A stretch of 53,524 nucleotides of DNA from Anaerovoracaceae bacterium (GCA_963648085.1 CAVJDC010000001.1:1-53524), one strand, 5' to 3'. Counted from the first letter of the stretch, positions 25,822 to 46,300 are shown. The notes: generated by a model from the letters alone, not told the origin. Translations and numbers: made by a program.

Positions 25822-26000
25822 TATTACAGAAAAAAGACATTGTTTTTTCTATAACAACAAGATTTCTTTATATAATCATCACAAAAGAGGTTTAATATAT
25901 AAACCGTAGCAAGGAGAAGAGCAACTCCTAGTTACAAATTCTTTTCATAAAAATCTCTCCAACAAAAATCAAAAGTAGAACAGAACCAAAACAAATGCTG

Positions 26001-26036
26001 ACAACAGCGAGGTGAACTCCTTCACCTCGCTGTTGT
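26001..26036. other. Strong 16-bp hairpin of ambiguous orientation in a gene-less region
   Basis: acaacagcgaggtgaa / ttcacctcgctgttgt with a 4-nt loop. No T-run follows on the + strand. A moderately T-rich tail (catttgttttgg) follows on the - strand. Confidence 0.6.
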
Positions 26037-26136
26037 TACGTATAATCACAGATAATATCCCCGACAAATCACACGGGTGTCATTCCGAATCATCCAATCT
26101 GAAGAATCTCAAATATCGAACAGCAAGATAATAGCT

Positions 26137-26181
26137 GCCGCATCTGTTGATTTGATAAATCAACAGATGCGGCATTTTTAT
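26137..26181 (+). terminator. Rho-independent terminator-like element with no recognisable upstream gene
   Basis: A 17-bp perfect stem (gccgcatctgttgattt / aaatcaacagatgcggc) with a 3-nt loop is followed by atttttatt. Confidence 0.65.
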
Positions 26182-26300
26182 TATAAAGAATGAATGTACA
26201 TACACGCAAGAATACTCAAAAGACGTTAGTATATCAAGAAACGTCAAACAACTATGTGACGAAATTATGACAAATGTGTTTGATTTACGAAAAGTAATTA

Positions 26301-26329
26301 TTGACAATGATAAAACAGTACATTAAAAT
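26301..26329 (+). promoter_or_regulatory. Near-consensus sigma-A-type promoter candidate (TTGACA-17 nt-TAAAAT), orphan
   Basis: TTGACA at 26301-26306, an exactly 17-nt spacer, and TAAAAT at 26324-26329. The nearest downstream + strand gene starts 1.2 kb away at 27532. Confidence 0.35.
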
Positions 26330-27195
26330 ATATGTGAGTTGGAAATAGTTGCACAAGAATAAAAAGAATATGTTCTGCATACACTAAATTCGCAATTCGC
26401 ATTTTCCGTTAAAAGGAAATGTCTATAAACTTGCTGCGCTTAATTTATTAATAATGGGTCAATGTTCGTATAAAACAGCGAGCGAAGGCTCTTTTTGTTG
26501 TTATATCGAGTGCGACTTTGCATTTTGGCAAGGTAAAATCCTGTTTTGAAAGGGGGCTTGCGTATTTTTTGGAAATAGAGTGCTTTTAGAATGGTAAATA
26601 TATAAAGGCTCGGCACCCAGGTATTTTTGGTTCTTCACGTTTTTCTCGGGGATTTCATATAAAAAAGTCTGAGTTTTTATACATTTATCATTCAGCACAT
26701 GGCCATATGGTCAGATACGCAGCTTATGCGGTGCTGCGTATGCTTGCCGTATGACTGGATTTCAAAAGAAATGCATGTTGGATATGGACAGAATCATCGC
26801 TTTCCTTTGTGATTCCGCCCGTATCATGCTATGGAATGGTTGTCCGCAATGGCATAAGATGCATCTTTCGTATGACTGGTATATGTGACCTATGTATCAT
26901 CATTTTATATCGCACTTGGTGACATATGTGACAGGATGCAAGTTATCGAAAGATGGAATGCTTTAAAAAGCTGTGATACATGGTCGCCATGTAATGCCAC
27001 GACATGGTGATTCTCACACTATAGGAAGCATTATACGTGAGGCTGAATATTTGCTTCAGATGTCAGAGGGAGATCGCAAGACAGCAAAATCGCAGCTGCT
27101 GCGAAGTAAGTCTGATACCTCGGCAAATTGAAAGCGGATCCGCTTATATCCAAATGAACCATCACCTAGTAAGAACGTGTGCATATCTAGCTCGG

Positions 27196-27411
27196 CATCT
27201 TGACGAGTGACACATCACATATCATCTTGACGAGTGATATATCACATATCATCTTGATGCGTGACATATCACATACCATCTTGACGCGTGACATATCACA
27301 TGCCATCTTGACGCGTGACATATCACATACCATCTTGACGCGTGACATATCACATACCATCTTGACGCGTGATATATCACATATCATCTTGACGAGTGAC
27401 ACGCCACATAT
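27196..27411. repeat. Intergenic tandem repeat, 27-bp unit x 8 (catcttgacgcgtgacatatcacatac), 120 bp upstream of the 27532 gene
   Basis: Eight head-to-tail copies with an exact 27-bp period. Each has TTGA(C/T)G and a 12-bp near-palindrome GTGACATATCAC, which is the perfect palindrome GTGATATATCAC in copies 2 and 7. There are no spacers between copies. Confidence 0.95.
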
Positions 27412-27531
27412 CGTTTTGCCAAGCAGATTGTCATATGAAAAAGACATGCAGCACAGAAGGATAAATGCAAAAGCTAGAATTTAGCTTTTGAAAAATGAAG
27501 GTTATTAGAAGATTGCGAAAGGAGAAATGAT

Positions 27532-28521
27532 TTGAGAGCAAAAAAGATACTCAGTCTGTTACTCGTACTTGCAATGATGCTCACTCTTTCGAGCACTATG
27601 GCTTTTGCCAGCACAGGCGCCACAATCGCTGCTGAGTCAGTATCTGCCGCAGCAGATGCCGAAACAGTTCAGGTGCCTATCAAGCTTACTGCCGCTGACA
27701 GCGGGGTAGCGACGATGAACCTTGCAATTACGCTTACAGGCGCAAGCTTTACAATGGACAATACAAATACCACAGCAACTGCAGACAGCGCACTTACGGG
27801 TCTGTGCAGCTCAAATGTTGTTGATGGCACACTCTACATCGCTTATGCTGCGATAGAGAACACAACAGCTCCTGCTACACTCGTGACTTTGACTTTACCA
27901 GCTCCTGCAGCAGGTACACAGTACACTGTCAATGTTGCTAAGGGATCTGCAAATGGGACACCGACTATAAGCTATTTTGCAGATAATGCTTTCACTCAGA
28001 TCGATGAAGTTACATTTACAAGCGGAATCGTATCTAAGGAGGAAGCCACAGAGCCTGAGACAGGATTTGTAGGTACACTTATAGAACCTGTCGCAGATTA
28101 CTTTACAACAGCAGGCATCACTACATCATTTGTAAACGGAAACTCTTACTCAGCAGGAGATACCTTCACAGTAGCATGTGAAAATCCTTGCTTAGTAGCT
28201 ATCTCGACAGACAATGGAACTTCGTGGATTTCGCTTGCAGCTGCAGAGACGGAGACCGCAAATACATACCTCTTTGCATTACCTGCAGATCTGAACGGAG
28301 CATTCCAGGTAGAGATGGCGATGAAGGGTGATCTCAATTACGACGGCGTGGTTAAAGTAACTGACGTTTCTCGACTTCAGAAAATCAATATAAAGGCTCT
28401 TGAGATGCCAGTTGGGTTTGACGCGCTGGCTTCAGATTTTAACGCAGACGGTACAATTGCTGTTAGCGACTGTAGTATTCTGATGAAAATCAATATAAAA
28501 GCAGAAGCCGCAGCTTGGTAA
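27532..28521 (+). CDS. Small secreted cohesin-like + spacer + dockerin protein
   Basis: TTG start with SD aaaggagaaa 5 nt upstream. Signal peptide: MRAKKILSLLLVLAMMLTLSSTMAFA. Cohesin-like block: ETVQVPIKLTAADSGVATMNLAITL...TLYIAYAAIENTTAPATLVTLTL. Dockerin loops: DLNYDGVVKVTD and DFNADGTIAVSD. Confidence 0.85.
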   Translation: MRAKKILSLLLVLAMMLTLSSTMAFASTGATIAAESVSAAADAETVQVPIKLTAADSGVATMNLAITLTGASFTMDNTNTTATADSALTGLCSSNVVDGTLYIAYAAIENTTAPATLVTLTLPAPAAGTQYTVNVAKGSANGTPTISYFADNAFTQIDEVTFTSGIVSKEEATEPETGFVGTLIEPVADYFTTAGITTSFVNGNSYSAGDTFTVACENPCLVAISTDNGTSWISLAAAETETANTYLFALPADLNGAFQVEMAMKGDLNYDGVVKVTDVSRLQKINIKALEMPVGFDALASDFNADGTIAVSDCSILMKINIKAEAAAW

Positions 28522-28559
28522 AATTGGTAATTTTTTGAGTTAAAAAAGGTAAAAATATT

Positions 28560-28946
28560 ATGAAAAGAAAATTTATTTCTATAGTTCTATGTTTAGCAAT
28601 GATGATAACTGCTATGGCTGTGCCATCATACGCTGCTGCAGACCAAGACCCAGTAGATGGTTTAGGACTTCAGCTTCTTAGAACAGATGAAAATTCCAAC
28701 GTTATACCCAACGATACTATACTAGTAAATGACACAGAAGATACCCCTTTCTATGCTTCTATGATTATGGATGAAACGTGGCATATATCAGGCGGTCAAG
28801 GTTATATTACAGAAGAACCAGCAGGTTTCAAATATGAACTTGAAAATGCCATGAAAGGTAAAAAATCTTCGATAGACTACAACAAAAATTATGGATCTGC
28901 TGACAAAAATGATAAATTTGAAGATGGTGTAGGTGTTTGGGTATGA
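28560..28946 (+). CDS. Signal peptide + N-terminal part of a cohesin-like domain, ended by an in-frame TGA; same frame as the next ORF
   Basis: 128 codons. Signal peptide: MKRKFISIVLCLAMMITAMAVPSYAAA. The ORF ends ...GVGVWV-TGA at 28944-28946, and the next ORF continues in the identical frame with no other stop between them. Confidence 0.7.
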   Translation: MKRKFISIVLCLAMMITAMAVPSYAAADQDPVDGLGLQLLRTDENSNVIPNDTILVNDTEDTPFYASMIMDETWHISGGQGYITEEPAGFKYELENAMKGKKSSIDYNKNYGSADKNDKFEDGVGVWV

Positions 28947-28997
28947 TACGAAAATATTGGTGCAGATGTTGAAAACGAAAAAGAATTAATACTTTTC

Positions 28998-31900
28998 GTG
29001 TGCCACGTTCCTGCAGGAACACCTTCTGGTCAGTATTCGCTTACTATTTTCGCCAATGAAATTTTAAACAAGGATTCAGAATTAGTAGGAGCAACTGATT
29101 CTACTCTTACAATCAACGTAGTCAACACTGACGAAAAGACTATCACAGTAAATGGTACAGAAAAGAACATCACTCAGCTTCTCGCAAGTGATTCTGCCGA
29201 AGCTCTTGCTGAAGATGCTTCATTCGTAAAGGGTGGAAATACTACTGTAAAAGTTGCTGCAGGTGAAAAGGTTGTACCTTTCTCTGCTCTTGGTTTAGCA
29301 GGCGACGAGTGCTGCATCTCTGTAAATGGAGGAGAAATCAACTACTCTGCTGCAGATATGAATAACATGTTCGTTTATATCGATGACACTGGCGCAGTTC
29401 TTACAGGTCACAAGGGTGCAGCAGCAGGCGGCTTCCTGTTCTGGAAGGGCGTAACTTCAATCGATGACAAAGATCATGCTTATACGAATGCAGTTACAAC
29501 TCCAGCTACTTGCGGTGTAGATGGTAAGATAGAATATCACTGCGCAAACAAGATTAGCGTAACTAGCAAGGCTGGCGAAGCATGTGACGCAGTAAATGCT
29601 GCTATGACTGAAACAATCAGCAAGGAAACAGTTGCTCATTCTTATGGCCAGTTCACTATTGATAAAGCAGCTACTTGCTCAGAGGCTGGTTCTAAGTCTA
29701 GAAGCTGTACACTTTGCGGAAACTTAGATACAGTAGAAATCCCAGCTACAGGCAATCACACTTGGGTGGCTGACGGTGAACCAGAAGTTACAGCTGATGG
29801 TACTGTACAGCACCAGAAGTGCGAAGTATGCGGCACACAAGGTCCAGACAAGACAACTGGAAATAACAAGTTCTATCTCACAGCTACAAAGATTTATACA
29901 GTTGAAAATAAGGGTACTGACAGTGCTGCAGCAGCAGCTGACCAGACTTGTGCAGCAAATAAGCATGAGAATGGTGACTATGGTATCGAATCTGGCAAGT
30001 TAGTAGACGTAGAATTCCGTCTCCAGACTACTTCTGATGCAAGCTTCTTACAGGGTCTCGATTCTACTATCAAATATGATAAGGAAAATCTCCAGCTCAT
30101 AAGCGTTTCATATGACAAGGGCCTCACAAATAAGGTTACTGTTAAGAATGATGAAGCAGCTGGCACATACAGAATCCAGACTTTGGATGCAGAATATGCA
30201 TTTGATGGTACTGACGATTATCTCCTCGCTACACTTACATTCATGCTGAAGAATGATGACGTAGCTAGTGGTACTTGCCTCCCTGTAGATTTTGAAGAGG
30301 GAAGCGTAAACCAGAACTGCATGTACAGTGATGGTAGCTCAAACTATCCAGTAACTGAAGGTATCGGATTCACAAATGTTACTGAATATACAGTAACTTG
30401 GGACTGGAACCACCAGCCACTAGTAGCTGGCGAAGAAGATCCAGAAGATCAGGTTGATTCTTATGCTGTAGGCAAGAAAATTACTAAGCCAACTAATCCT
30501 ACAAGAACAGGCTTCGAATTCAAGGGTTGGGATGCAAATGATGATGGCGTAGTAGATGCTTCTGATGAAATCGCAGCTGAAATGCCAGCTAAGGATCTCA
30601 CATACAAGGCTATCTGGGAAGCTAAGACTTATGACGTAGTATTCAACCACGGTAACCACGGTACACTTGCAGGTGAAGATGCTAATGGTAAGGTAACTGT
30701 TAAAACTGAATATGGTCAGGAACCAACAGCTCCAGAAGTAACTCCAGCAGCTGGTTATGAATTCGCAGGTTGGAATCCAGAAATCGCAGAAGTTGTTGGC
30801 GAAAATCCTACTCTCGAATATACAGCAACTTATAATGCTCTTCCACAGTCTTTGAAGATCAACTTCACATCTGATGATGCTATAAAACTTCCTGCAAATA
30901 TCGATAAGGAAGTTGCTACCGACGCAGCCTTTGAAGAAGCTATTCCAGCAATCGAAGGTTATACAGCTAAGATCGTTGCAGTTGATCCTGAAAATGCTGG
31001 AATCACAGTTGATGATGCTGCTGATACAGCAGTAGCAGGCACTATGATAGCAGGCGGAATCACAGTTACTGTAAAGTATAGTCCAAATCAGGTTGATATC
31101 ACATTCAACGAGGGCGACCACGGTACTATCGCTGATGCTGACGACAACGGAAACAAAGTAGTTCCTACAGACTACAACAAGACTCCAGAAGCTCCAGCAG
31201 TAACTCCAGATGAGGGTTATGAATTCACAGGTTGGAATCCAGAAATCAACCCAGCAACTGGTGAAACTACTTATACTGCACAGTACAAGGCTATAGCATA
31301 TGATCTCGTTATCAAGCATGCAGCTGCAGATGATTCAGAAGTTCCAGCTGATTATACTGCAAAGGTAGACTTCGGCTCAGAAATCAGCTACGCTATCCCA
31401 GAAAAGACTGGTTACACAGCTAAGATTACTGCTGCTACAGACGGCGCTGGAATCACAGTTGATGAAAATAATGATACAGAAGTAGCAGGCATTATGCCAG
31501 CTAAGAATGTAGAAGTTACAGTAACATACACTCCTGTAAGCTACGATATCACATTTAAGCCAGGCGACCACGGTACTATCGATGGTGCTGGCGCTGATGG
31601 AAACAAAGTAGTTCCTACAGACTACAGCAAGACTCCAGAAGATCCAGCAGTAAATCCAAATACTGGTTATGAATTTGACGGTTGGACTCCAGAAGTAGTT
31701 CCAGCAACTGGTGAAACTACTTATACAGCTACTTATGTTGTAGCAGGCGCTAAGAATATCGTAGTAGAAGATTACATGTATGCAACTACAGACATGTACA
31801 TGATCAGAATCCCTAAGATGGGTGAAGGTTATGACGTTTCTTATGACGGCAACAAAATGTTCATCTCAGAAGATGAAAACTACAAGATCGATGGCAAGTC

Positions 31901-32231
31901 AGTATTTGTATATCTGATCCCTAAGACAGACTTTGATGATCACGGAATCGACTATGTAATCAGCAAGCTTTCTGCTGCAGATGGTTCTGCATGCATCAAG
32001 ATCGACTACAACAAGGATACAGATGAAAATAAGAATGGCGTAATCGATAACAACGATGCTACTCAGGTTTACCAGCTCCTCATCTCTCACGGTGACTGCT
32101 ACACTAACGGCCAGGTTAGCATAGAAAGACGTCTCGAAAGTGATACAAATACTGCTACAGCTGACGCTACTTACAGAGGAAGCCTCAAGGATGTAGAAGA
32201 TATCATCGCTGCTCGTGGTACTGCTTACTAA
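28998..32231 (+). CDS. Large surface protein body: end of first cohesin-like domain, Cys-rich repeats, second cohesin-like domain, Listeria-Bacteroides-type repeats, conserved spacer, atypical dockerin-like C-terminus. Probably the 3' part of one 28560-32231 gene
   Basis: The ORF-track GTG start has no SD and no signal peptide. Second cohesin-like block: KLVDVEFRLQTTSDASFLQGLDSTIKYDKENLQLISV...YLLATLTFMLKND. Four repeats carry (T/A/E)G(F/Y)EF(K/A/T/D)GW. Ca-loop-like segment: DENKNGVIDNND. Confidence 0.8.
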   Translation: MCHVPAGTPSGQYSLTIFANEILNKDSELVGATDSTLTINVVNTDEKTITVNGTEKNITQLLASDSAEALAEDASFVKGGNTTVKVAAGEKVVPFSALGLAGDECCISVNGGEINYSAADMNNMFVYIDDTGAVLTGHKGAAAGGFLFWKGVTSIDDKDHAYTNAVTTPATCGVDGKIEYHCANKISVTSKAGEACDAVNAAMTETISKETVAHSYGQFTIDKAATCSEAGSKSRSCTLCGNLDTVEIPATGNHTWVADGEPEVTADGTVQHQKCEVCGTQGPDKTTGNNKFYLTATKIYTVENKGTDSAAAAADQTCAANKHENGDYGIESGKLVDVEFRLQTTSDASFLQGLDSTIKYDKENLQLISVSYDKGLTNKVTVKNDEAAGTYRIQTLDAEYAFDGTDDYLLATLTFMLKNDDVASGTCLPVDFEEGSVNQNCMYSDGSSNYPVTEGIGFTNVTEYTVTWDWNHQPLVAGEEDPEDQVDSYAVGKKITKPTNPTRTGFEFKGWDANDDGVVDASDEIAAEMPAKDLTYKAIWEAKTYDVVFNHGNHGTLAGEDANGKVTVKTEYGQEPTAPEVTPAAGYEFAGWNPEIAEVVGENPTLEYTATYNALPQSLKINFTSDDAIKLPANIDKEVATDAAFEEAIPAIEGYTAKIVAVDPENAGITVDDAADTAVAGTMIAGGITVTVKYSPNQVDITFNEGDHGTIADADDNGNKVVPTDYNKTPEAPAVTPDEGYEFTGWNPEINPATGETTYTAQYKAIAYDLVIKHAAADDSEVPADYTAKVDFGSEISYAIPEKTGYTAKITAATDGAGITVDENNDTEVAGIMPAKNVEVTVTYTPVSYDITFKPGDHGTIDGAGADGNKVVPTDYSKTPEDPAVNPNTGYEFDGWTPEVVPATGETTYTATYVVAGAKNIVVEDYMYATTDMYMIRIPKMGEGYDVSYDGNKMFISEDENYKIDGKSVFVYLIPKTDFDDHGIDYVISKLSAADGSACIKIDYNKDTDENKNGVIDNNDATQVYQLLISHGDCYTNGQVSIERRLESDTNTATADATYRGSLKDVEDIIAARGTAY

Positions 32232-32409
32232 TATCAAGAGCTTGAGACTCTAAGGATAATGATTATATATTTATCGTAATTATCCTGAAATATTTTAAAA
32301 CAAATCCTCTACTTAGATTAAGTTTTTCACGCATGTATTGAGAGCTATTTCCTTTTAAGTTAATAGCTTCTGACGCTTAAAATAAGGACGGATTAGAAAA
32401 TGCAATGTT

Positions 32410-32435
32410 CGCCGGGTGCCTGCGGGTGCCCGGCG
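32410..32435 (+). terminator. GC-rich hairpin, possible terminator of the 27532-32231 unit
   Basis: cgccgggtgcc / gggtgcccggcg forms an 11-bp stem with two G-U pairs and a 4-nt loop. A T-run (tatttt) begins 8 nt downstream, so the geometry is imperfect. Confidence 0.4.
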
Positions 32436-32573
32436 GATAGGTATTTTCATCAGAAAGAGCATGCCATGTGAAAAATGTGGCGTGCGCTTTGTGTTGAAAA
32501 TAGAAAAATGCGACACAGCTAAATATTTAGGCCAGATGGAGTGTGAAAAAGGAGTGCGAAAAAGGAGGTTTCG

Positions 32574-34211
32574 GTGTTTAGGTTGAGAAAAATGATTTCA
32601 ATCGTGCTGATTTTCAGCATGGTCTTGTGTGTGAATATACCTATATTTTCACAGGCGGCAGAAAAGGCTGAGTATGTCATTGATGTAGAGCTTGATGTAA
32701 ATGGCAGCATGCCAAAGAGCTTGAAGGTCGGTGATACTCTAAATGTCAAGGTATATCTGAGCCACAATGGCGAAAATCCTGAGGAAGAATTCTACAATAT
32801 CTGGGGAATCGATTATATCATGGATCTAGGCAGTGGCTTTAAGTACAATGAAGATCTCAAGGGTACACCTCTTATCACGGAAAATGGAGGTACCGTCAGA
32901 TATCTCAAGCCGTCTCTTATTAAATGGCAAAATGGCGCAGGCATATATGGGCTTCAATCAACTGAAGCAGTCTACATGGACATTACGATGAAAGGTATCG
33001 ACGTATATCCAGAAAATGGAAGAATTGAGCTCTTCTCATTTTCCTGTGATGTGGAATCGACAGACAGCCTGGAGATAACGTCTGTCTTTGGTGAGGTTTA
33101 TGAAGATAGAGAAATAATCAAGGTAGATGGAAAAAACCAGTTCAAAGAGGATTATACGCTTGAAAATGGCAGAGTGAGCGCAGACAGCTACGATTTTTCT
33201 ATAAAGAAGGCTGATGATTCAAGCAAGACAGATGGCAAGACCGACGGCAAGACCGACGGCAGCGGCACTGTCGTAAAGCCTGAAGACGGGTCTGGCAACG
33301 GCTCGGGAGATGGATCAGGCAACGGGTCTGGCAACGGCTCGGGAGATGGATCAGGCAACGGCTCAGGCAACGGCTCCGGAGATGAGAATGGAAACGGCTC
33401 TGGCGATGGTTCTGGCGATGAGAATGGAAACGGCTCCGGAGATGGCTCTGGCGATGAGAATGGCAATGGCAATACTGACGGCACAAAGCCCGCACTAAAC
33501 AAGACAGATCACAAGGCATATCTCAGTGGTTATGATTCTGATGGTGACGGAGTGGCTGAGCTTGTGAAGCCGCTTGGACTTATCACAAGAGCTGAAGTAG
33601 CAACTATGCTTTACAGACTTCTTGATGACAGCTCTGCTGCGAAGTATAAGACATCGTCAAATAGCTTTTCAGACGTACCTGCTAATGCATGGTACTGTGA
33701 GGCTGTCTCCACACTTAGCAATGCAGGTGTCATCTCGGGATACAAGGATGGCACATTCCGCCCAAATGGAAAGATTACGAGAGCTGAAGTAGCAAAGATG
33801 CTTTATTGTCTGCTCGACGATGCCACTATCAGTGCATCATCGTCAAACAGTGCATCATCGTCAAACAGTGCATCATCGTCAAGCTCGACTGCTGGCAGAT
33901 TTAGCGATGTAAGCTCCGAATGGTGGTACTTCGGATATGTATCTACTCTCTCAAATGCCGGAATCATAAATGGATATACAGACGGCACATTCAGACCAAA
34001 TGGTCAGATAAAGCGTGCAGAAGCTGTCTCTATGATAAATAAACTACTTGGACGAGGCACCATAACAGCTTCAGGTATGCTTAGCAGCATGAAGAACTTC
34101 ACAGACAACAGTGATACTGCACAATGGTACTATGCTGCAGTTCAGGAAGCAGCAAATGGTCACACTTACGAGATGAATGGCGCTTCTGAGCATTGGATAG
34201 CACTGAGTTAA
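32574..34211 (+). CDS. SLH-anchored surface protein with N-terminal cohesin-like domain and G/S/N/D-rich linker
   Basis: GTG start with SD aaggagg 5 nt upstream. Signal peptide: ...VNIPIFSQAAEK. The N-terminal beta-rich domain (VGDTLNVKVYLSHNG...RIELFSFSCDV) is cohesin-like, but this call is less certain. SLH repeats: FSDVPANAWYCEAVSTLSNAGVISGYKDGTFRPNGKITRAEVAKML and FSDVSSEWWYFGYVSTLSNAGIINGYTDGTFRPNG, plus a degenerate first repeat. Confidence 0.85.
   Translation: MFRLRKMISIVLIFSMVLCVNIPIFSQAAEKAEYVIDVELDVNGSMPKSLKVGDTLNVKVYLSHNGENPEEEFYNIWGIDYIMDLGSGFKYNEDLKGTPLITENGGTVRYLKPSLIKWQNGAGIYGLQSTEAVYMDITMKGIDVYPENGRIELFSFSCDVESTDSLEITSVFGEVYEDREIIKVDGKNQFKEDYTLENGRVSADSYDFSIKKADDSSKTDGKTDGKTDGSGTVVKPEDGSGNGSGDGSGNGSGNGSGDGSGNGSGNGSGDENGNGSGDGSGDENGNGSGDGSGDENGNGNTDGTKPALNKTDHKAYLSGYDSDGDGVAELVKPLGLITRAEVATMLYRLLDDSSAAKYKTSSNSFSDVPANAWYCEAVSTLSNAGVISGYKDGTFRPNGKITRAEVAKMLYCLLDDATISASSSNSASSSNSASSSSSTAGRFSDVSSEWWYFGYVSTLSNAGIINGYTDGTFRPNGQIKRAEAVSMINKLLGRGTITASGMLSSMKNFTDNSDTAQWYYAAVQEAANGHTYEMNGASEHWIALS
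33226..33472 (+). repeat. In-frame low-complexity tandem repeats encoding (KTDG)3 and (GSGNGSGD / GSGDENGN)n linker
   Basis: 12-bp gacggcaagacc units are followed by ~24-48-bp ggctcgggagatggatcaggcaac-type units. The antisense ORFs at 33188-33519 are artefacts of this array. Confidence 0.9.
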
Positions 34212-34295
34212 CATTGGATAGAACTGAGTCAACGTTGAATAGCACTGAGTTAACATTGGATAGAACTGAGTCAACGTTGAATAGCACTGGGTTAA
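34191..34295. repeat. Tandem repeat, 21-bp unit x 5 (42-bp higher-order unit), starting inside the last 7 codons of the 32574 gene
   Basis: Units: cattggatagcactgagttaa (34191-34211, encoding HWIALS-stop), cattggatagaactgagtcaa, cgttgaatagcactgagttaa, cattggatagaactgagtcaa, cgttgaatagcactgggttaa. Confidence 0.92.
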
Positions 34296-34378
34296 GCATA
34301 GTATCAGAGCACATATGATTTCTGGAAGATTATATTTAGGAAGATTGTGCAAAATATCGGATGAAAGGAGTTTTATCG

Positions 34379-37300
34379 ATGAAAGTAAACCTACGAAAGA
34401 TGCTGGCATTGGTTCTTTGCTTTGCGATGGCTTTCTCACTTTGCAGTGGGCTTGTTGTCTCGAATGCTGCTGCTGAGAGAAAAACGATCAGCACTACGTA
34501 TATGAACTGTGGTGTAAATAAGCATCTAAAGACTGAGATATCGGCAAACTTTATCGGAGATTATCAGATTTCAGGCAGTTTGTCCACAAAGGAAAGCAGA
34601 GAGGATTGCGTGGATGAAAATAAGGACGGCATGTGTGACATCTGCAATACAGCTTTATCTTCGGAAGAAAATCCTCAATTCAAATATGTTTTCAGTCTCG
34701 AGTATGATGAGGATGATGACTCTCTCGTAAAGATTACGGTATCTATTGTACGGACAGATATTCAGGACGGAGCAACTTATCTTATAAGAGGCATAGACTT
34801 CACATCAAGATTCGGCGAGGGTCTTTCACCTGTATATACTTCAAGTGACAAGAAAGATTCCGAATTTGCGGAGGTACTCATTCCTAGTGCATATATGGAA
34901 AACAATGTAGAAGTTCCTATTACCGTAAATGAAGGAAAAGGCGACAAATCAGGAAATCTGAAATATCAGGCAAAGAATCCGGATACTTTGTCTAACCCTG
35001 ATGTAAATCAATATCTGCAGCTGACTTTTGATAATCTTGAACAAATGCAGCGAGGCGGCGGCTATATCACGATGAACAAAGAGCAGCCTATTTACTCCTT
35101 CAAGATAAAAAAAGATGACCTTTCAAACGGCCTAAAGAATATGGACGTCTATAAAGAAAAATTTCTGATATATCTGCCTCTTGACGGAACAAAATATACT
35201 GGCGATGGTGAAGATATCGACCTTGCTACGCCAAAGCTGATATATGATCCAAATGGCACTGTCCTGACATATAAAAATATGTCATATGGGAAAAATTGCC
35301 CGGAATCAGTATATATGGAAGAATATCCGAAAGTGGATGGTAAGTATCAGGAAGTCACGAGCCTCATTTCGTCAAACAATATGGTCACTCCTACCGGTTA
35401 TACTTTTGACGGATGGCATGTGAAGACTTCTACTGGCATGACAGAAGCTAAGCTCGATATTTCACGCAAAAATCCACTCGTCATGAATACGACCTGGTAT
35501 CTCATCGCAAAATGGGAGCCTATCAAATATACAGCTACATATGTAAATAAATATGGCACGGAGGTTCCTACAGATAATCCTATATATCTCACTGTAGAAG
35601 ATCCAACTATTGATGATGATAAGGTACCGGATGTTCCGACGATAAATGGTTATACGGGGAAATGGCAGGACAATCCATTTGATCCTTCAAAGCCGTCAAA
35701 TGTAATTATCAAACCAGAATATACGCCTATAGAATATACGATAACATATGATGCTGCGGGAGGCACTATTGTCGAGGGCAATGATTCTCCTCAGTCTTAT
35801 ACTGTTGAAGATAAGATTACCCTCAGGACTGCTGCCCGCAAGGGATATACCTTCAAGGGATGGACCGTGGAAGGTTCTTCTGTCCAGCAGACAGGTGCTA
35901 GACTTGACAACTGGGGAAATACGATTTCTAAGTCCACGACTACAGTAGGTCCAAGCAAGTATGGCAATGTAAAGCTTACTGCGATATGGGAAAAAAATAG
36001 TTATACAGTTACATGGAAAGGCGGAAATAAGGGCACGGTAAAGAATACTTCCGGCAAGATGGTAACATCCTTTACACAGACTGTTCCTTATGGAGAGACG
36101 CTGGTATTTCCGGACGCTGCAAGAGCAGAAGCCAAGATTGATGGTTGGAGTGTCGATGACAGCGGAGATAAAGAACTTGACGCCGATGGCAAGGGAATAC
36201 AGACAGAGACAGCAGGAGGAGTTAATGTCATAAAAGGACAGCTGCCTGCTATGCCTGATGCAAATATTACTATTACAGTAATCTGGGATGCGACAAGATA
36301 TCCTCTTACTGTAAATTATGTAATGTCAGACAAATCTACAGTTCCTGCCAAGGACAAGGACGGGAATGATGTTAAAAGCGGTGAAGCAATCACTTATGAA
36401 TATGAGCAGGAATATTCTATAAAAACGCCTCAGTTTACTGGTTATACCGCAAGCCGCACATATATAAATGGCACGATGCCTGCAGAGCCAAAGACTGAAG
36501 TTGTCACTTATACTCCAAATAATCACAAGATAGAATGGAATGCAGATGGCGGCAAGGTAAATGATAAAAATAATAATAATAATCCAGTTTCTTCTTACTC
36601 AGAGTCAGTAGTCTATGGCCAGGATCTTGGTAAAATAACTACTCCTTCTGACCCTGTAAGAGATGGTTATACTTTTGATGGCTGGACTGCTAAGGATGGC
36701 GACAAGGAGATAACTCCTAAGGATCTGCTTAAGAACGGATCGAAGATGCCAGACAAGGATTACACATTCACTGCTAAGTGGAAAGCTATCCCATATACCA
36801 TAGCACTGAATCTTAATGGCGGAGAGTTAGATGACGATGCATGGACTGTATATAAGGATGGAGATCCTGTTCGTGATGAGCTTGTAGACGGAGAATCGAA
36901 TGAGCTTGCACCTATAGAATATTGGATGAACTATAGTGCAGATTCTACTGAGAAGCTTCCGACTGCTGCTCGCAGTGGATATTCGCTTAAAGGATGGAAG
37001 GTCACTGTAGTGCTTCCTGACAGGCAGACTGCAGTGCCAAGCTGGATATTGGGCAAGACTTATTCGAAGAATTATTCTTTAAATGGAACTTATGGATATG
37101 TAAGACTCGATGCTGTATGGGGTTCAGGAAGCAGCAGCAGATCTGATTCAAATACTACTCCAGATAAAGATACGGATACGGATACGGATCCGACTGAACC
37201 AGACAAAAAGACAGATATTTTAGATACAGCAAATCATTATTCATATCTCTGCGGATATGACAAGAATAAAGATGGCATAGCTGAAGTGATCCAGCCGGAG

Positions 37301-37933
37301 AAGTCTATTACCAGAGCGGAGATTGCTACAGTATTCTTTAGACTATTAGATGATGACGTTCGCACAAAATATCTCACAAAGACAAATAGTTATTCTGACG
37401 TGGATGCAATCTGGTGGTACAATACAGCAATTTCAACTCTCACAAATGCGGGAATTATCAATGGCTACAAGGATGGAACTTTCCGCCCTCAGACTCCTGT
37501 CACAAGAGCTGAGCTTGCAGTCATGCTCACTAGATTCCTCAAGACAGAGCTTCAGCAGCAAACTGAAGACGCTGGATTTGCGGACGTTTCAGTGACGACT
37601 CACTGGGCATACAAGGAAATCTGTATCGCAGCAAATGCAGGTCTCATTGAAGGATATACAGTAAATGGCACAAAGCTCTTCAAGCCAGAAAAGGATATCA
37701 CAAGAGCAGAGACTGCTACTATGATAAACAGAATCCTTAATAGAAATCCAAAGTCAACTACTGATCTTCTCAAAAGCATGAAGAAATTCTACGACAACAG
37801 CAACACTTCCGCATGGTACTATCTCGCTATGCAGGAAGCTTCAAACAGCCACGACTACGTGCGCGACATATATGGCACAGAGACATGGACTGAGCTGATC
37901 GAAAGCCCAGACTGGCTGGCTTATGAGAAGTAG
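34379..37933 (+). CDS. SLH-anchored surface protein with N-terminal cohesin-like domain and multiple Listeria-Bacteroides-type repeats
   Basis: I chose the ATG at 34379 because SD aaaggag lies 8 nt upstream. Signal peptide: MKVNLRKMLALVLCFAMAFSLCSGLVVSNAAA. Repeats: TGYTFDGWHV, KGYTFKGWTV, DGYTFDGWTA, SGYSLKGWKV. C-terminal SLH repeats: YSDVDAIWWYNTAISTLTNAGIINGYKDGTFRPQ and FADVSVTTHWAYKEICIAANAGLIEGY. Confidence 0.88.
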   Translation: MKVNLRKMLALVLCFAMAFSLCSGLVVSNAAAERKTISTTYMNCGVNKHLKTEISANFIGDYQISGSLSTKESREDCVDENKDGMCDICNTALSSEENPQFKYVFSLEYDEDDDSLVKITVSIVRTDIQDGATYLIRGIDFTSRFGEGLSPVYTSSDKKDSEFAEVLIPSAYMENNVEVPITVNEGKGDKSGNLKYQAKNPDTLSNPDVNQYLQLTFDNLEQMQRGGGYITMNKEQPIYSFKIKKDDLSNGLKNMDVYKEKFLIYLPLDGTKYTGDGEDIDLATPKLIYDPNGTVLTYKNMSYGKNCPESVYMEEYPKVDGKYQEVTSLISSNNMVTPTGYTFDGWHVKTSTGMTEAKLDISRKNPLVMNTTWYLIAKWEPIKYTATYVNKYGTEVPTDNPIYLTVEDPTIDDDKVPDVPTINGYTGKWQDNPFDPSKPSNVIIKPEYTPIEYTITYDAAGGTIVEGNDSPQSYTVEDKITLRTAARKGYTFKGWTVEGSSVQQTGARLDNWGNTISKSTTTVGPSKYGNVKLTAIWEKNSYTVTWKGGNKGTVKNTSGKMVTSFTQTVPYGETLVFPDAARAEAKIDGWSVDDSGDKELDADGKGIQTETAGGVNVIKGQLPAMPDANITITVIWDATRYPLTVNYVMSDKSTVPAKDKDGNDVKSGEAITYEYEQEYSIKTPQFTGYTASRTYINGTMPAEPKTEVVTYTPNNHKIEWNADGGKVNDKNNNNNPVSSYSESVVYGQDLGKITTPSDPVRDGYTFDGWTAKDGDKEITPKDLLKNGSKMPDKDYTFTAKWKAIPYTIALNLNGGELDDDAWTVYKDGDPVRDELVDGESNELAPIEYWMNYSADSTEKLPTAARSGYSLKGWKVTVVLPDRQTAVPSWILGKTYSKNYSLNGTYGYVRLDAVWGSGSSSRSDSNTTPDKDTDTDTDPTEPDKKTDILDTANHYSYLCGYDKNKDGIAEVIQPEKSITRAEIATVFFRLLDDDVRTKYLTKTNSYSDVDAIWWYNTAISTLTNAGIINGYKDGTFRPQTPVTRAELAVMLTRFLKTELQQQTEDAGFADVSVTTHWAYKEICIAANAGLIEGYTVNGTKLFKPEKDITRAETATMINRILNRNPKSTTDLLKSMKKFYDNSNTSAWYYLAMQEASNSHDYVRDIYGTETWTELIESPDWLAYEK

Positions 37934-38065: not shown

Positions 38066-38068
38066 CGG

Positions 38069-38236
38069 GGTGGCGCTGCCGACGAGCACTGCTGGCTGGC
38101 ACCACAGACTAGCGAAAGGGGGTGGCGCTGCCGACGAGCGCTGCTGGCTAGCACCACAGACTAGCGAAAGGGGGTGGCGCTGCTGGCTGGCAAAATCGAG
38201 TGAAATTGCTTGGCTAAAAGCCTGGCGCTGCCGACG
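38069..38236. repeat. Intergenic tandem repeat, 52-bp unit x ~2.5 plus a partial extra copy (ggtggcgctgccgacgagcactgctggctggcaccacagactagcgaaaggg)
   Basis: Unit starts at 38069, 38121 and 38173 give an exact 52-bp period. The third copy carries an internal deletion. A further tggcgctgccgacga fragment lies at 38222-38236. The array is GC-rich. Confidence 0.9.
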
Positions 38237-38346: not shown

Positions 38347-38544
38347 GATATCAAGTATATCAGGCATATCAAGTTATGTCAGGCATATCAAGTTATGTCA
38401 GGCATATCAAGTTATGTTGGGCATATCAAGTTATGTCAGGCATATCAAGTTATGTTGGGCATATCCAAATATGTTAGGGATATCAAGTATATCAGGCATA
38501 TCGGATATACCAACAAGCATATCAAGTATATTTAGGATATCAGG
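38347..38544. repeat. Intergenic tandem repeat, 19-bp unit x ~10 (ggcatatcaagttatgtca), ending 28 bp before the SDR gene start
   Basis: catatcaag cores occur at 38365, 38384, 38403, 38422, 38441 and 38460 (exact 19-bp period). Degenerate copies flank them on both sides at 38347-38364 and 38479-38544. Confidence 0.92.
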
Positions 38545-40387: not shown

Positions 40388-43300
40388 ATGTCAAACTTTT
40401 CAAAAAAGCTTGTAGCATGGGTAACATTTGTATTTATAAGTTTATCGACGGTGGGCAGCATCACAGCTGTTCCTGTTTCGGCAGCTGTAAAGACAGATTC
40501 TGCTTCACATGTAAACTCTAGCAGTTTCACTGCATCGGAGCACAGCGCTAAAGCGAGCGCTGAAAATATCAATGAAGATGATGAGGAAGGTGACGGAGCT
40601 TTCGCCAGACTTGCGGAGTCCAGTCTGAGTGGAAATCTTTCGGAACTTATTCTTGGAGACTACTTTAATCTTACAAATGGAAATGGTGACAAGGACACTT
40701 CGAAGGATAGTGCAGACAAGGCTTCTGTCAAGTCGGACTCGGGCAAGGATTCCGATGTGTCAAGTTCAGATAAAGCTTCTGCACTTAGTGTGAGCGAGGT
40801 TGATGCTGACAGCAGCGAGGGCGATTCTAAGTCTGACAGTGGTAAGGACACTTCCGAGTCTGATCAGAGTGAGAATGATGAGATTGATCAAAGTGAGATT
40901 GAGTTGAAGGAAGATACAGTTGCAAGTGCCCTTAGGAATGGAGATACAGCGGAGGCTATAAGATATTATATTAGCAGCACTACGCCAAAGACATATAATC
41001 TTGATAAAGACACTCATGGTATGATATATGTCAAAAATCCGGAATCTTCCAGAAAAGTTGGGTTCACAAATGCTTTGACTCTTGCCCCTGCGGACTCAAA
41101 AGAAAGCGTTTCGTGCACAAATCTGACTATTCAGAGTATGATTGAAAGCGATGACGAAAATATATGGAAACCGGTGAGACTTACTTTAGAGGGCCTGAAA
41201 ATCACATCGCCGGCTGAAGACTATCCGGATTTGCAGAATGTGAACGAAGGTTCAGATTCTGATGGTGCGCAGACGCAAACCTCTGAGATAGACACTACGG
41301 GATCAGATAGTATATTATATTTCGATACATCGGGATACAAATTCAATAAAAAGCCAGAGGCAAATGAATATACTCAAGATCTCAAGCTGAATTCAAATAT
41401 TGTGCTGAATGTAAATAAGCCTGGACAGACAGGTCTTAGGTCAAGGCAGATGGCATATTATGTTGACTCATCTACAGGGGAAAATATACATATCAGATCC
41501 AAGCTGCGTATTAATAACTATGAGTACAGTAAATACTATTCATTGATAATAAATGCCTCAAATGGTGCGGCAGGCATTGAAGGATTGTATGTCGTATGTG
41601 AATACAATGGCAGGAAGAAAAATATACCTCCAGAGATGAGCGCAGACGGGAAAAATTATGCAGTTGGCCAGGGGGTCATCCTAAGGGCAGATGAGAATTC
41701 TGCGCATCTTTCTACGGAGAGAAATAAAGAAAATCCGGAAGACTCATACTTTATGTTTGATACATCTCAGATGAAGGATGGGGAAGATGCAAAAGAAAAT
41801 CTGGATAAAAATGGAATTTTCGTATCTGTAGATGGCGGAGAAAATACGGAAGTTGCCGGATCGACATATATAAGAGGAGGCTTTAGTGGTAAGTCTACAA
41901 AGCCAATGACCGAATATCAGGATGCAGAAGGAAATGCCGTAAATCCTGTAGTGAGAATTTGGTTGGGCAGCGGTAAGGATCATTATTTCGAAATCAATGG
42001 GGAACTCTTCGAAGTTGCGTGGGATGCAGACAGTGAAAGCTTCAAGATGAAGGATATTTATGAAGTCACAACTGTTGGAAATGATGAAGAAGCATCAAAG
42101 AAAGTGACTTATAGCACGGAGCACTTCAAGGACAAGACTGACGAGGAGGCAAAGTCTGTAAAAGCGACTGAGGGTACTGAAGTAAAGGTAAGAGTCGAGG
42201 CAAAAGCTGATTATTATGTGAAGGGCATAAAGGTTGAAAAGGTAAAGTCAGAGTCGGACGGTGGCGATACAGATGATATTGGCACTGGTGATACAGGATC
42301 AGAAGGCACGGGCAGTGACGGCTCTGAAGGCACTGGCGGAAAGACTGACGGCGAGGGCTCTGAAGGCACTGGTGATACAGGATCAGAAGGCACGGGCAGT
42401 GACGGCTCTGAAGGCACTGGCGGAAAGACTGACGGCGAGGGCTCTGAAGGCACTGGTGATACAGGATCAGAAGGCACGGGCAGTGACGGCTCTGAAGGCA
42501 CTGGCGGAAAGACTGACGGCGAGGGCTCTGAAGGCACTGGTGATACAGGATCAGAAGGCACGGGCAGTGACGGCTCTGAAGGCACTGGCGGTGACGGTGC
42601 AGGTGAAAAGGAATCTCTAGAGGTTGAGGTTACAAAGAGCAATGACAGTACATCGGCTGGAGAAGCTGACGAAAAGAGCGGCCCGAAGTGGGCGGAGTAC
42701 ACTTTCGAGATGCCTGCGGGTGATGTAGAAGTTACACCTATATATGGCGAGAGACAGTCATATAAAATCGGTGCTATTTCCGTAAAGTGCGGGGACAAGT
42801 ATCTCACTGAGGACGATGAGATAGAGGCACAGCTTTCTGCTGTAAGTGTTGAGAGCATCGAAAGAAAGTCAAACGCTGAGGATACAGACTCTGAGAGCGG
42901 TAAGGATGAAGACTCTGAGAGCGGTAAAGATGAGGGCTCTGAAAGCAGTAAGAACACAATCAGGGACTCGGAGGATTCTGCATTCAAGCAGGGAGAAGAC
43001 GTGCTTAAGGAAGGTGATACTGTCACTCTTAAGATAGAACCGAGCCTATTTTGGACGGTCACATCTGCAAAATATACATACAAGGATAAGGACGGAAATA
43101 TACAGGAGCAGGTGCTGACTGGAGAAAATAATAAATATGTGATTACGATGCCAGGCAGTGATATCGACTTTGAGTTTGAATGCTATGAAGCACCAAGCAC
43201 GAAGATTGTCTTTGCAGATGATGTGACGGATCATGACACTGATGCGCCAGATGTGTCATGTGAAAATGGGATAAGCAAACTCAAGAAGAATGGCAAGACG

Positions 43301-46300
43301 AATTATATCATTAAAAATGGCGACACTGCGGATATTACGATATTAAGATCGTGGGCACGTGGATATGCGGATGCATGGTATCTTTCTTCGATGTATTATA
43401 CATATGAGTATACTATAGATGGCAGCAGCACAGAAAGTGGCAGCGCTGAAGGTAACAGTGATGCAGAAGATGGCAGCAGCACAGAAAGTGAAAGCACAGA
43501 TGGCAGCACAGTAACTACTGGCGAAGGACGTGCCGACATTTCTGAAGAAGAGATACTTGCTGCGACAGATAGAAGCTATCATGCTAAAACTGGTGATAAG
43601 TACAAGGATAAAGTCACTAAAATATATGAGAAGGGTGCACTTGAAGAAAAGACAAGCCTGACGCTTGATACTTCAAAAATTATAGATACAATTGCAAAGG
43701 AAAATAGTATCAGTGATGAGAACAGAACTAGTATCAGGATAAAGAAAGTCACATATCATGCGGCATATAAGAAATATTATGCTGTGAAGATTTTTGAAGG
43801 AACAGTCAAAGCCGGCACTGATACAGATGACAATGAGATAAGACGAATTGAAGTAACAAATGCTGACGGAAGTCCTTTTTATAGATATTATGGCGTAGAT
43901 GGAATAGAGAATAACGAAGACAACAATTCTGGTGCTTCAACTCCTTATCGTCTTCAGAACTTCAAATCGACGAGTAAAACTTATTCCTACACCAACGAGT
44001 ATTATCTTAGGGCGGGACAGAAGGTTCATCTTAGAATCTGGAATGACGACTCATATATAACAACACTAGATTCAGTGACATTGACTGACTCTGATGGAAA
44101 AGTCATCCAAACTCTGACAGAGTACGCAGATAAACTGGATTATAAAGACGAAGGATACATCTGGATAGCTGATGACAATTCCAAGGTATATACCAGTTAT
44201 GTGACTATAACTATGCCTGCAAGTGATGTTACGGTAGATGCAGATTATTCATTTTATAAGATTAAGCACAATTCATTTGAGCATGGGGAATATTATTGGA
44301 CTGGTTCTGATTACAAGAGGGGAACCGACAATAGAGGTGTAGGCTCTGGATATCCCAACACGATTGCATTTATCAAACCTGATGCTGGATATAAGCTTCA
44401 ATATGTCAAGATAGAAAAGGAAGTCAAAGATCCCGAGACAGGAGAAGTGAAGACTGATCCTAAGACAGGAGAAGTACTGTGGGAAACAGATGAAGAGCTA
44501 GAAGCTCTGTGCAATGACAAGCTAGATGAGAATGGGAATGTTGCCGAGGCAGTATACACATATGATACTGAAAAGGGAGTATATACCCACGAGATTAAAT
44601 TTAACATGCCAGCGCACAACATAAGGGTTACTCCTGTGATGTACAATGCGACTGAATATGATGTAAATATCGAGTCTAGTGAGGCTGGAAATATATGCGT
44701 AGAGGAAGTCAGCCGCGTTTTGAAGGAGGAACAGAACATTGCCGGCAAAGTGACGCCAGCGATAAAGGATATCACTTATAGCCGGGCAGATCATGCTGAT
44801 GATCCTGATGCAGGTCGTGTTGGCATGAAAGCTATGCCAAATTATACCGTAAAGCTAAGTGTATCGCTAAATGACAATTTCCGCCTTAAGAAGGTTGTCG
44901 TAAAGGATGCAGATGGAAACGAAGTGAAGGTCAGTGACGCTGATACGACTGCACCTTATTTTGTGATGCCTGAAAAATCAGTTACAGTTTCGATGGAATA
45001 TGAAAAGCGTTTCACGGCTAAAATCGACGAAACTGTCGAAAATGGAACCTTAGCGATAAAGACAGACAGCGAGGAATCAAACATCATCGCATTGCCGGCA
45101 GATGCCGAATGCACTGTAAATTATACTTCTGCCGAGGGATATGGTCTGAGCCGCATGTGGTATACATATGTGAAGGACTCTGACGAGGGTACTCAGAGCG
45201 AAGGCGGAGATTCGCAAGGTACGGGTGATGCTTCACAGGGTACAGGCGGAGATTCGCAGAGTACAGAGGTTGAGATTACACGAAATGCGGAAGGCATATA
45301 TGCGTTTAAGATGCCTGCGCAGGACATCGTGATTCATGCGCAGTTTAGCAAGCTTCACACAGTTAAGGTTTCACCTGACATTCAGAAGGGCGTTTTATAT
45401 ATAGCTTCAAATGTTCTTCAGGCTACTACGAGTGCTGATATTGAAAAGGATGGACTGCAGGAGCTGCAGGCTGCAAAGGACAATGAAATTTCTGTTGTGG
45501 TAGTGCCTAGAAATGAAAATTATAGTCTCAAGAAGATATATTATGTCACAGATAAGTCTGATGATCAGCGGACTGGAGAGACTGGAGAGTCCGGCGAGAC
45601 TGGAAGAACTGGAGAGACTGGAGGAACTGGAGGAACATCGACAGCCATTAACTCTGAAACAGTCATTTATCCTGACGAGAAGGGTGACTTCAAGTTTACT
45701 ATGCCAGATGCAAATGTGACTATATATGCAGAATTTGAAAACAATGGAAAAGCATATAAGATCACCTCTGATTTTGACAATGATGAGAGGACTGAGGCGG
45801 GTCATCTTTTCCGTGGTGCTGTGCTGTCGGCTGACAAGGATGCAGAAGATTACATTTCTATAAGTGTCTTGGACAGTGAATCAGCATCAGGAACTGGCAG
45901 CGGAGAATCAGGAACTGGCAGCGGCACCGCTGGAACTGGCGGTGGAACTTCAGGAACTGACGGTGAAACTTCTGGGAGTGCGGAGGCATCTGAAGGGCAG
46001 ACCGTGATTGTTGCTGTAAAGGATATGGATCGCGGCGAGTATTATACGGGTTATGGCGCGATAAGATATAAGTATAGATACAACAATAAGGAAATCACAG
46101 GTATCGCAGATATTTCTGAGTGCGATGCATCGGGAAATGCCTTAGACAAGACTCAGATGCAGGAGGCTTTGTGTACTTTGGAATGTGCGGACGAGGAGAG
46201 GATCCATTATTATACATTTACTATGCCTGATGCCGATGTTGAAGTCTGTGTAAGATATACAAAGGCAAATGAGTGGGATGGACTTACTATAGATGTCAGC

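Follow-up and report, generated by a model that had tools for sequence, protein, structure and literature searches.

The stretch of DNA analysed here, a complete contig of 53,524 nucleotides (CAVJDC010000001.1:1-53524 of assembly GCA_963648085.1; hereafter the window), carries two clusters of genes for proteins with cohesin, dockerin or S-layer homology (SLH) modules. Our subject is the second cluster, four genes that we call P1 to P4, and in particular a 0.77-kb allelic cassette within it that runs from the dockerin of P1 into the N-terminal domain of P2. Translation of the open reading frames (ORFs) placed the four genes on the plus strand just where a model's reading of the sequence alone (the sequence-only reading) had put them (Table 1), and all four translations have a signal-peptide-like start.

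Table 1. Features of the second cluster, in window coordinates
Feature	Position	Strand	Description
27-bp tandem repeat	27196-27401	none	unit CATCTTGACGCGTGACATATCACATAC; ~130 bp upstream of P1
P1	27532-28521	+	329 aa; signal peptide aa 1-26, N-domain (P1N) aa 28-172, beta-rich spacer 'X' aa 173-262, dockerin aa 265-329
Allelic cassette	28345-29115	+	P1 dockerin from first Ca loop to stop, intergenic spacer, P2 aa 1-185; 0.77 kb
P2	28560-32231	+	1223 codons, interrupted by in-frame stop
P2 N-terminal domain (P2N)	28638-29117	+	aa 27-186; hypervariable, possibly cohesin-like
In-frame TGA	28944-28946	+	P2 codon 129, in place of Cys codon
P2 second domain (P2c)	29967-30395	+	aa 470-612; cohesin, by homology
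P2 Listeria-Bacteroides (Flg_new) repeats	30387-31724	+	Pfam, TIGR02543
P2 C-terminal module	31731-32228	+	aa 1058-1223; one Ca-loop-like motif, 32022-32057
Terminator-like hairpin 3' of P2	32406-32439	+	15-pair stem, 9 G-C, then T-run; consensus scan only
P3	32574-34211	+	545 aa; begins with signal peptide
P3 N-domain (P3N)	32655-33218	+	
P3 linker	33219-33488	+	Gly/Ser/Asn/Asp
P3 SLH region	33489-34208	+	
P4	34361 or 34379 to 37933	+	1190 or 1184 aa; begins with signal peptide
P4 N-region (P4N)	34472-35395	+	Cys-rich and beta-rich; followed by Flg_new repeats
P4 SLH region	37208-37930	+	
Terminator-like hairpin 3' of P4	38028-38059	+	consensus scan

We retrieved nine copies of the locus that are complete or nearly so, together with the shorter fragments L010, L015, L016 and L018. 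They fall into two species that are about 70-84% identical to one another: species A, comprising the window, L017 and L009 (about 98-99% DNA identity), and species B, comprising L001-L003, L004, L011, L012, L013 and L014. The P1-P4 family was found in these two species only (a scan of GTDB gave one true orthologous locus and two metagenome scans gave nothing). In all retrieved copies the gene order is GntR, radical-SAM, P1, P2, P3, P4, SDR (short-chain dehydrogenase/reductase), so that the survey of synteny proposed along with the sequence-only reading finds the four genes between the same housekeeping genes in both species.

Domains of the four proteins

P1 ends in a dockerin. The Pfam model Dockerin_1 (PF00404, type I-like) matches aa 265-319 with 22.9 bits in the full protein and 24.4 bits in the isolated segment, that is, at or just above its cutoff of 22.9 bits, and the segment has the expected two repeats of about 22 residues, each with a 12-residue calcium loop (DLNYDGVVKVTD and DFNADGTIAVSD) and a helix. 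Its matches among PDB sequences are nearly all dockerin-bearing chains (E = 2e-3 to 7e-3). Furthermore, it resembles the Pfam-verified dockerins in genes B and D of the first cluster, as shown both by hhalign (86.7%) and by Smith-Waterman alignment (z = 7.1). The signal peptide, spacer and dockerin that had been read in P1 are therefore all present, whereas the cohesin-like N-domain read there has no Pfam match. P1N is at best faintly similar to the cohesin of gene B (Smith-Waterman z = 4.1; a BLASTP match at E = 0.069 falls within it, at B 1072-1099), a profile search of PDB sequences with P1N gave nothing or noise-level matches, and the AlphaFold2 (AF2) model of P1, built from five sequences, was unusable (predicted local distance difference test, pLDDT, 37), its Foldseek matches not being meaningful. 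P1N may thus be cohesin-like.

P2 had been credited with two cohesin-like domains. None of the four proteins has an above-threshold match to Pfam Cohesin (PF00963; cutoff 24.1 bits). The second P2 domain, P2c, scores 19.5 bits (E = 1.2e-3, sub-threshold) and aligns with the Pfam-verified cohesin of gene D (BLASTP E = 4e-4 over D 358-458; Smith-Waterman z = 9.7; hhalign 25%); its profile found nothing or only noise among PDB sequences. We accept P2c as a predicted cohesin by homology to D. The hypervariable first domain, P2N, is harder to place. It has no Pfam Cohesin match, but the top PDB match of a profile made from its six alleles is a cohesin (5n5p_A, E = 0.064, 100 aa), and it is weakly similar to P2c (Smith-Waterman z = 3.6). 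Since the PDB profile searches with P1N, P2c, P3N, P4N and the P2 C-terminus gave nothing or noise matches at E of about 0.05-2, the match of P2N can be taken as a hint only, and P2N may be cohesin-like. The Listeria-Bacteroides repeats that had been noticed in P2 are confirmed as three to four Flg_new repeats (Pfam Flg_new E = 4.7e-19, Flg_new_2 E = 7e-16); an NCBIfam scan of the four proteins added nothing to the Pfam picture.

The description of P2 as an X-dockerin protein is not supported. Its C-terminal module, which is 72% identical between the two species, has a single loop-like motif rather than the two-repeat calcium-binding architecture of a dockerin, and the length of that loop shifts from 12 residues in species A (DENKNGVIDNND) to 14 in species B (DENKGTNQTVDNND). 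No dockerin was found there by Pfam, even at E <= 10, nor by PDB profile search, and alignment with the dockerin of gene B gave z = 2.6. Similarly, the claimed resemblance between the spacer of P2 and the X spacer of the first cluster is at chance level (Smith-Waterman z = 0.0). The C-terminal module is thus only a candidate docking end. Elsewhere in P2, outside the cassette (29140-32228), non-synonymous exceeded synonymous change within species (ratio of the two rates, dN/dS, 1.7-3.2, from small counts), and, of the 14 differences that separate L017 from the window, 7 lie within P2 nt 2573-2589; the pattern suggests gene conversion among Flg_new repeats, or noise in the assembly of repeats.

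In the window P2 is not the one open frame for which it had been taken, as codon 129 is TGA. The corresponding codon is TGC (Cys) in L017, which is 99.3% identical and has the same cassette, so that a single C-to-A change separates the two, and it is TGT in L011; moreover, all eight of the other retrieved loci that span P2 from end to end have it intact (1206-1239 aa). That TGA acts as a stop in this genome is clear from the LPXTG gene at 3586-8847, which ends on it with its anchor motif at the extreme C-terminus (aa 1711-1745 of 1753). An alternative genetic code is thereby ruled out, no other gene in the window having an internal stop. Selenocysteine is unlikely, given the TGC of L017 and an Rfam scan of 26000-29300, TGA site included, that returned no match and no family of the SECIS (selenocysteine insertion sequence) type. 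A hairpin of -11.5 kcal/mol (z = -2.4) begins 2 nt into the TGA codon, and recoding there seems only remotely possible. Most likely, from these comparisons, the TGA is a strain-specific nonsense mutation or a consensus error, and therefore either this strain would make no full-length P2 or one base of the assembly is wrong. One could go further and suppose that the locus is decaying in the window, with P2 a pseudogene and the cluster non-functional in this strain. A single base change is enough to create a stop that is genuine elsewhere in the window, and an ORF resuming downstream at GTG 28998 would be without a signal peptide. We nevertheless consider decay very unlikely. Nothing else in the 3.7 kb is disabling, every other gene is intact and matches its counterpart in sister strains at 99-100% identity, and the stop itself may be a consensus error. 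Read-through of the TGA, which aligns with a Cys codon and has a hairpin after it, or its decoding as selenocysteine, would also be possible, though the Rfam scan of the surrounding stretch matched nothing.

P3 and P4 are SLH proteins, as had been supposed, both with tandem repeats at the C-terminus (Pfam PF00395; E = 4.3e-37 in P3 and 6.6e-28 in P4), each comprising two full matches and flanking half-repeats. These regions match structures of the S-layer protein Sap (E = 9e-13). In contrast, an N-terminal domain common to the two proteins is not supported: P3N and P4N align at z = 0.4 (hhalign 1.2%), and the likeness of motifs that had suggested it does not exceed chance level. P4N matched nothing (Pfam, PDB profile search, hhalign, Smith-Waterman). 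For P3N, there was no Pfam Cohesin match and the PDB profile search gave nothing or noise, but its AF2 model, of low confidence (pLDDT 50.2; predicted template-modelling score, pTM, 0.49), was matched by Foldseek to jelly-roll beta-sandwiches (best E = 2.4e-3). Cohesins form the largest group among these (18 of the top 50 matches), including a cohesin-like module of C. perfringens (2jh2; E = 2.5e-3, TM score 0.46), but alpha-2-macroglobulin receptor domains, pilins and carbohydrate-binding modules (CBMs) score equally well. Thus the model gives weak to moderate grounds for viewing P3N as a cohesin-like jelly roll. The cohesin fold assumed for both SLH proteins has not been overturned in P3N, whereas in P4N it is unsupported.

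Relatives of these domains are few. In a phmmer search of 1.84e9 (1.84 billion) representative proteins, the sole relative of P3N was its species B orthologue, P0001 (66% identical). The search with full-length P3 was swamped by SLH matches, from which one true orthologue emerged, and a chimeric query of P3N and P4N missed even P0001, which shows that a word pre-filter can miss true homologues. A phmmer search with all of the domains against the 120 SLH proteins from the P3 search also gave no match. The negative hhalign results above carry no weight, as hhalign has little sensitivity for profiles this shallow: a pair of genuine Pfam cohesin groups reaches just 0.6% against one another. The layout proposed for P3 does have a precedent, because related bacteria have small proteins (about 400 aa) in which SLH repeats follow a Pfam cohesin (P0002-P0004, P0017). 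In species A the P3 linker consists of (G-S/N/D)n, in species B of a Q/N/D/K-rich repeat, and linker length differs among strains (P3 = 510-551 aa).

The first cluster consists of genes A to D (3586-19976, 16.4 kb) between genes for an LPG synthase and a thiolase. As these two genes are directly adjacent in species B (L011 923-3886) and cluster 1 is absent there, cluster 1 is accessory, by insertion or deletion, whereas the second cluster is conserved. Pfam domains in cluster 1 are of structural or adhesion type only (VWA, DUF7604, LPXTG anchor, fn3, GLUG, Cohesin, Dockerin_1 and SLH). Parts are common to the two clusters, judging by the similarities described above: the dockerins of P1, B and D are homologous, and P2c is predicted to be homologous to the cohesin of D. 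The notion that the window holds two copies of one organisational logic therefore probably holds in outline, with a cohesin-spacer-dockerin client beside an SLH protein in both, but not as regards a shared X spacer. In cluster 1 the dockerin of B is followed by the N-terminus of the SLH protein C (13223-13413), a geometry of gene order like that at the junction of the P1 dockerin and P2N.

The allelic cassette

When the window is compared with L009, the flanks are 97.9% and 98.3% identical and the cassette between them gives no alignment; strains with 98-100% identity over the remaining sequence fail to align across it. Its boundaries are sharp. The left break falls within P1 aa 265-276, at the start of the dockerin's first calcium loop, in 6/7 comparisons within a species, and the right break within P2 aa 167-187, just before an invariant VVNTDEK that closes the N-terminal domain. 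The breakpoints occupy the same narrow zones in species B. The seventh pair, γ1 against γ2 (subtypes defined below), aligns straight through the tract.

The cassettes fall into three classes: α (the window, L017, L004 and L011), β (L009 and L012) and γ, the last with subtypes γ1 (L001) and γ2 (L013 and L014). Classes α and β are present in both species. The two halves of the cassette are perfectly associated, the class of the dockerin being that of P2N in every locus. Dockerins are 62-73% identical within a class and 27-43% between classes, and the corresponding values for P2N are 48-77% and 23-33%. The flanks of the cassette, on the other hand, follow species (92-100% identity within, 65-77% between). 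Apart from the dockerin, P2N alone among the domains of the locus varies within a species, and identity stays at 92-100% across P1N, P3, P4 and the remainder of P2. The sequence-only reading had suggested a family with several specificities, and at least three co-varying classes of dockerin and P2N support this more strongly than that reading could have seen.

The polymorphism itself is solid. Among 13 distinct public P1 sequences (P0121-P0133; 2 from species A and 11 from species B) there are six discrete dockerin sequences and no intermediates, namely α and β in each species and γ1 and γ2 in species B. Chimerism of metagenome-assembled genomes (MAGs) as the cause of the cassette can be excluded, since γ1 and γ2 recur in several member proteins and contigs and the junction zones are constant across the aligned loci. 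In species B, γ1 and γ2 each occur in four distinct cluster member proteins, from several sources and contigs, and α and β in one or two; the dockerin alleles of the window and of L009 are each found in a second contig.

The classes are old. For class α, the synonymous divergence (dS) between species is 0.53-0.85, as against 0.75-0.84 in the flanks. Because within-class divergence between species equals that of the flanks, the allele classes are indicated to be older than the species split. Between different classes within a species, dS is saturated in the cassette and 0.006-0.015 in the flanks. Both halves are under purifying selection within a class (dN/dS 0.11-0.17 for the dockerin and 0.38-0.51 for P2N), and the alleles are therefore functional rather than decaying. 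Shared classes, deep divergence between them, flank-like divergence within them and purifying selection together make this a balanced, trans-species polymorphism, as judged from two species and about 12 contigs. The same data explain why the P1 dockerin, whose conservation in orthologues the sequence-only reading had taken as a touchstone, is the least conserved part of P1: it is allelic, not degenerating.

The variable dockerin also bears on a sceptical account, according to which the locus has one dockerin and one cohesin only, P2, P3 and P4 are ordinary adhesins or S-layer-associated proteins whose beta-sandwich heads are unrelated, and the P1 dockerin docks on P2c or on the cohesins of cluster 1. 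The lack of above-threshold Pfam cohesins would agree with this, as would a matchless P4N, the z of 0.4 between P3N and P4N, a P3N with no relative beyond its orthologue, the alpha-macroglobulin receptor domains, pilins and CBMs among its top Foldseek matches, and the absence of cluster 1 from species B. However, P2c and the cluster 1 cohesins are invariant between strains while the dockerin varies, and species B keeps a polymorphic dockerin even though it has no cluster 1 at this position. In addition, the small SLH proteins of related bacteria combine a Pfam cohesin with the layout of P3. On balance, we think this account quite unlikely.

Proposed assembly and its genomic setting

The reading that we prefer, to which we give a probability of roughly 0.55, is that P1-P4 encode an SLH-anchored, non-enzymatic cohesin-dockerin assembly on the cell surface, in which the P1 dockerin and P2N form an allelic specificity cassette. 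P3 and P4 would be fixed to the wall by their SLH repeats and present their N-terminal domains. P2 would be a long secreted stalk of Listeria-Bacteroides repeats, bearing the cohesin at aa 470-612 and, distally, the N-terminal cohesin-like domain, and might dock on P3 or P4 through its conserved C-terminus. P1 would be a small secreted adaptor made up of a cohesin-like domain, a spacer and a dockerin, and this dockerin would plug, with calcium, into P2N, encoded directly downstream in the same operon. The dockerin and P2N would be inherited as one 0.77-kb cassette of at least three ancient classes, so that each strain would have a matched plug and socket and the population would keep several mutually divergent pairs.

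We infer that the dockerin binds P2N because P2N is the sole domain to co-vary with it, the two change in lock-step, the tract ends at domain boundaries, and the genes appear to share an operon. As regards the last point, terminator-like hairpins after P2 and P4, together with the 38 bp between P1 and P2 (38-82 bp across loci), suggest two transcription units, P1-P2 and P3-P4. The dockerin sequences fit such a contact too. In the α and β dockerins, the helix segments of repeats 1 and 2 agree at 6-8 of 14 positions within the same class and at 0-4 of 14 across classes, a symmetry that fits both repeats contacting the same partner.

Several observations weigh against the proposed assembly. The dockerin and P2N adjoin in the DNA, where a single recombination tract co-transfers both whether or not they touch, so that linkage by itself would produce their perfect association. 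For P2N, the case for a cohesin fold consists of E = 0.064 and z = 3.6; for P1N, P3N and P4N it is weak or absent, and the AF2 models reach pLDDT of 37 and 50. That P2 attaches to the SLH anchors is conjectural, because the C-terminus of P2 is unrecognizable as a dockerin and its loop changes in length. In class γ the second loop of the dockerin is degenerate and its two repeats show little symmetry. Finally, the sample comprises about a dozen contigs, most of them from MAGs, in two species.

Linkage leads to another explanation, in which the tract is a hot-spot of exposed epitopes under pressure from phage or host antibodies, the partner of the dockerin is monomorphic and lies elsewhere, and the halves co-vary only through adjacency. 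Contiguity of the halves would account for the association without any binding, P2N would be the most distal part of P2 if P2 docks by its C-terminus, and the dN/dS of P2N is above that of the dockerin. A hot-spot of this kind would not, however, readily explain why both ends of the tract are domain boundaries, in both species, nor why the differences among dockerins include the helix after each calcium loop, mirrored in both repeats. In known dockerins it is this helix that contacts the cohesin. Furthermore, dockerins of only 27-43% identity are unlikely to share one monomorphic partner, and no other domain of the locus varies. We therefore regard the hot-spot as unlikely, though less so than the sceptical account above.

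As for the reason for the diversity within the proposed cassette, it may lie in strain-specific assembly or recognition, or in escape from phage or antibodies with the interface left intact. A bolder version, which we put forward tentatively as possible but clearly less probable than the assembly itself, is a lock-and-key identity cassette, in which several incompatible cohesin-dockerin specificities would have been held by long-term balancing selection since before the species split. If true, it would mean that complexes are built only from 'self' parts, or that kin are recognized, or that the tip escapes phage or antibodies, and it would be the first allelic, trans-species switching of specificity in a cohesin-dockerin system.

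The spacers between the genes of this locus are unusually rich in repeats. The 27-bp repeat upstream of P1 has 7.6 copies in the window, 10.0 in L009 (9611-9881) and 3.3 in L017 (1291-1378) by Tandem Repeats Finder, and is without a counterpart in species B; it could be a variable regulatory array, or could have been collapsed by assembly. There are tandem repeats of 21/42 bp in the P3-P4 spacer (34191-34295, 5 copies) and of 52 bp (38067-38183, 2.2 copies) and 19 bp (38348-38502, 8.3 copies) downstream of P4. Further downstream, a 3970-aa protein (40388-52300) combines a signal peptide with a Gly/Asn-rich tract and, at the C-terminus, a hydrophobic anchor. Some of its repeat blocks recur in genes B and C (identity of up to 39% over 439 aa), and Pfam gave no match at E <= 0.01.

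Known systems and significance

Non-cellulosomal cohesin-dockerin systems and SLH anchoring are both of known kinds. A cellulosome or amylosome is recognized by dockerin-bearing enzymes, by a CBM on a scaffoldin, or by both, and neither P1-P4 nor the list of Pfam domains in cluster 1 contains these; in P1-P4, Pfam and NCBIfam scans found no glycoside hydrolase, carbohydrate esterase, polysaccharide lyase, CBM or other enzyme domain. In the system of the anchoring scaffoldins SdbA, OlpB and Orf2p of Acetivibrio (Clostridium) thermocellum, SLH anchoring goes together with type II cohesins and X-dockerin modules. The present system is like such clostridial SLH scaffoldin systems in having a C-terminal dockerin after a beta-rich spacer, SLH proteins with N-terminal modules that may be of cohesin type, and, as proposed here, a hierarchical logic of docking. 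It differs from them in the absence of enzyme domains, in its Listeria-Bacteroides stalks, in that most of its cohesin-like modules fall below the Pfam threshold, in an X spacer with no detectable similarity, and in having one interface that is allelic.

In the sca cluster of Ruminococcus flavefaciens, too, genes for adaptor and anchor scaffoldins lie together, and its ScaC is a small protein with a cohesin and a dockerin. The best weak matches in structure or sequence found here are Ruminococcus cohesins (5n5p, 8ajy, 4iu3 and 2zf9). ScaC, the adaptor scaffoldin, is described as polymorphic between strains and has been used to gauge strain diversity (PMC4081043). The P1-P4 locus is set apart by belonging to Lachnospiraceae, by SLH anchoring and by the lack of enzymes, and above all by the replacement of the dockerin and the cohesin-like domain of the neighbouring gene as one cassette, in classes that are trans-species. 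Within the Lachnospiraceae, the minimal cohesin-dockerin pair ClcD/ClcC of Cellulosilyticum lentocellum (Clole_2598/2599) is a precedent for adjacent genes whose products, a dockerin protein and its cohesin partner, bind experimentally (PMC13487519). Unlike P1 and P2, ClcD and ClcC are associated with cellulase activity, and no polymorphism is reported for them; the likeness drawn here is one of gene arrangement.

In its manner of variation, the cassette resembles polymorphic loci of cognate pairs, such as CdiA-CT/CdiI and other toxin-immunity cassettes, or IdsD/IdsE, which serve self-recognition in Proteus. There, a variable C-terminal segment and the product of the next gene are likewise swapped as a unit behind a sharp, conserved junction, and many mutually exclusive cognate pairs exist in one species. 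This is a likeness in how the locus may work and not one of family: in P1-P4 there are no toxin or immunity domains, both partners are secreted structural modules, and there is no sign of antagonism.

The interaction of cohesin with dockerin is a textbook case of modular, high-affinity assembly, widely used in synthetic biology, and its specificities have usually been compared between species or between paralogues. A full-text search, covering part of the literature, found no publication that links dockerins with balancing selection, and what appears to be new is a cassette, allelic and trans-species, in which a dockerin is exchanged along with the cohesin-like domain of the neighbouring gene. 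If the pair is truly exchanged as a 0.77-kb unit among strains that are otherwise identical, these alleles would offer a ready set of pairs that are orthogonal and co-evolved (23-43% identical between classes), and also a direct route to mapping the determinants of cohesin-dockerin specificity. In addition, as most modules of this system escape current domain models, similar systems are probably under-counted. For the bacteria themselves, the locus points to the individuality of strains among gut Lachnospiraceae, rather than to the digestion of fibre, as the role of such assemblies.

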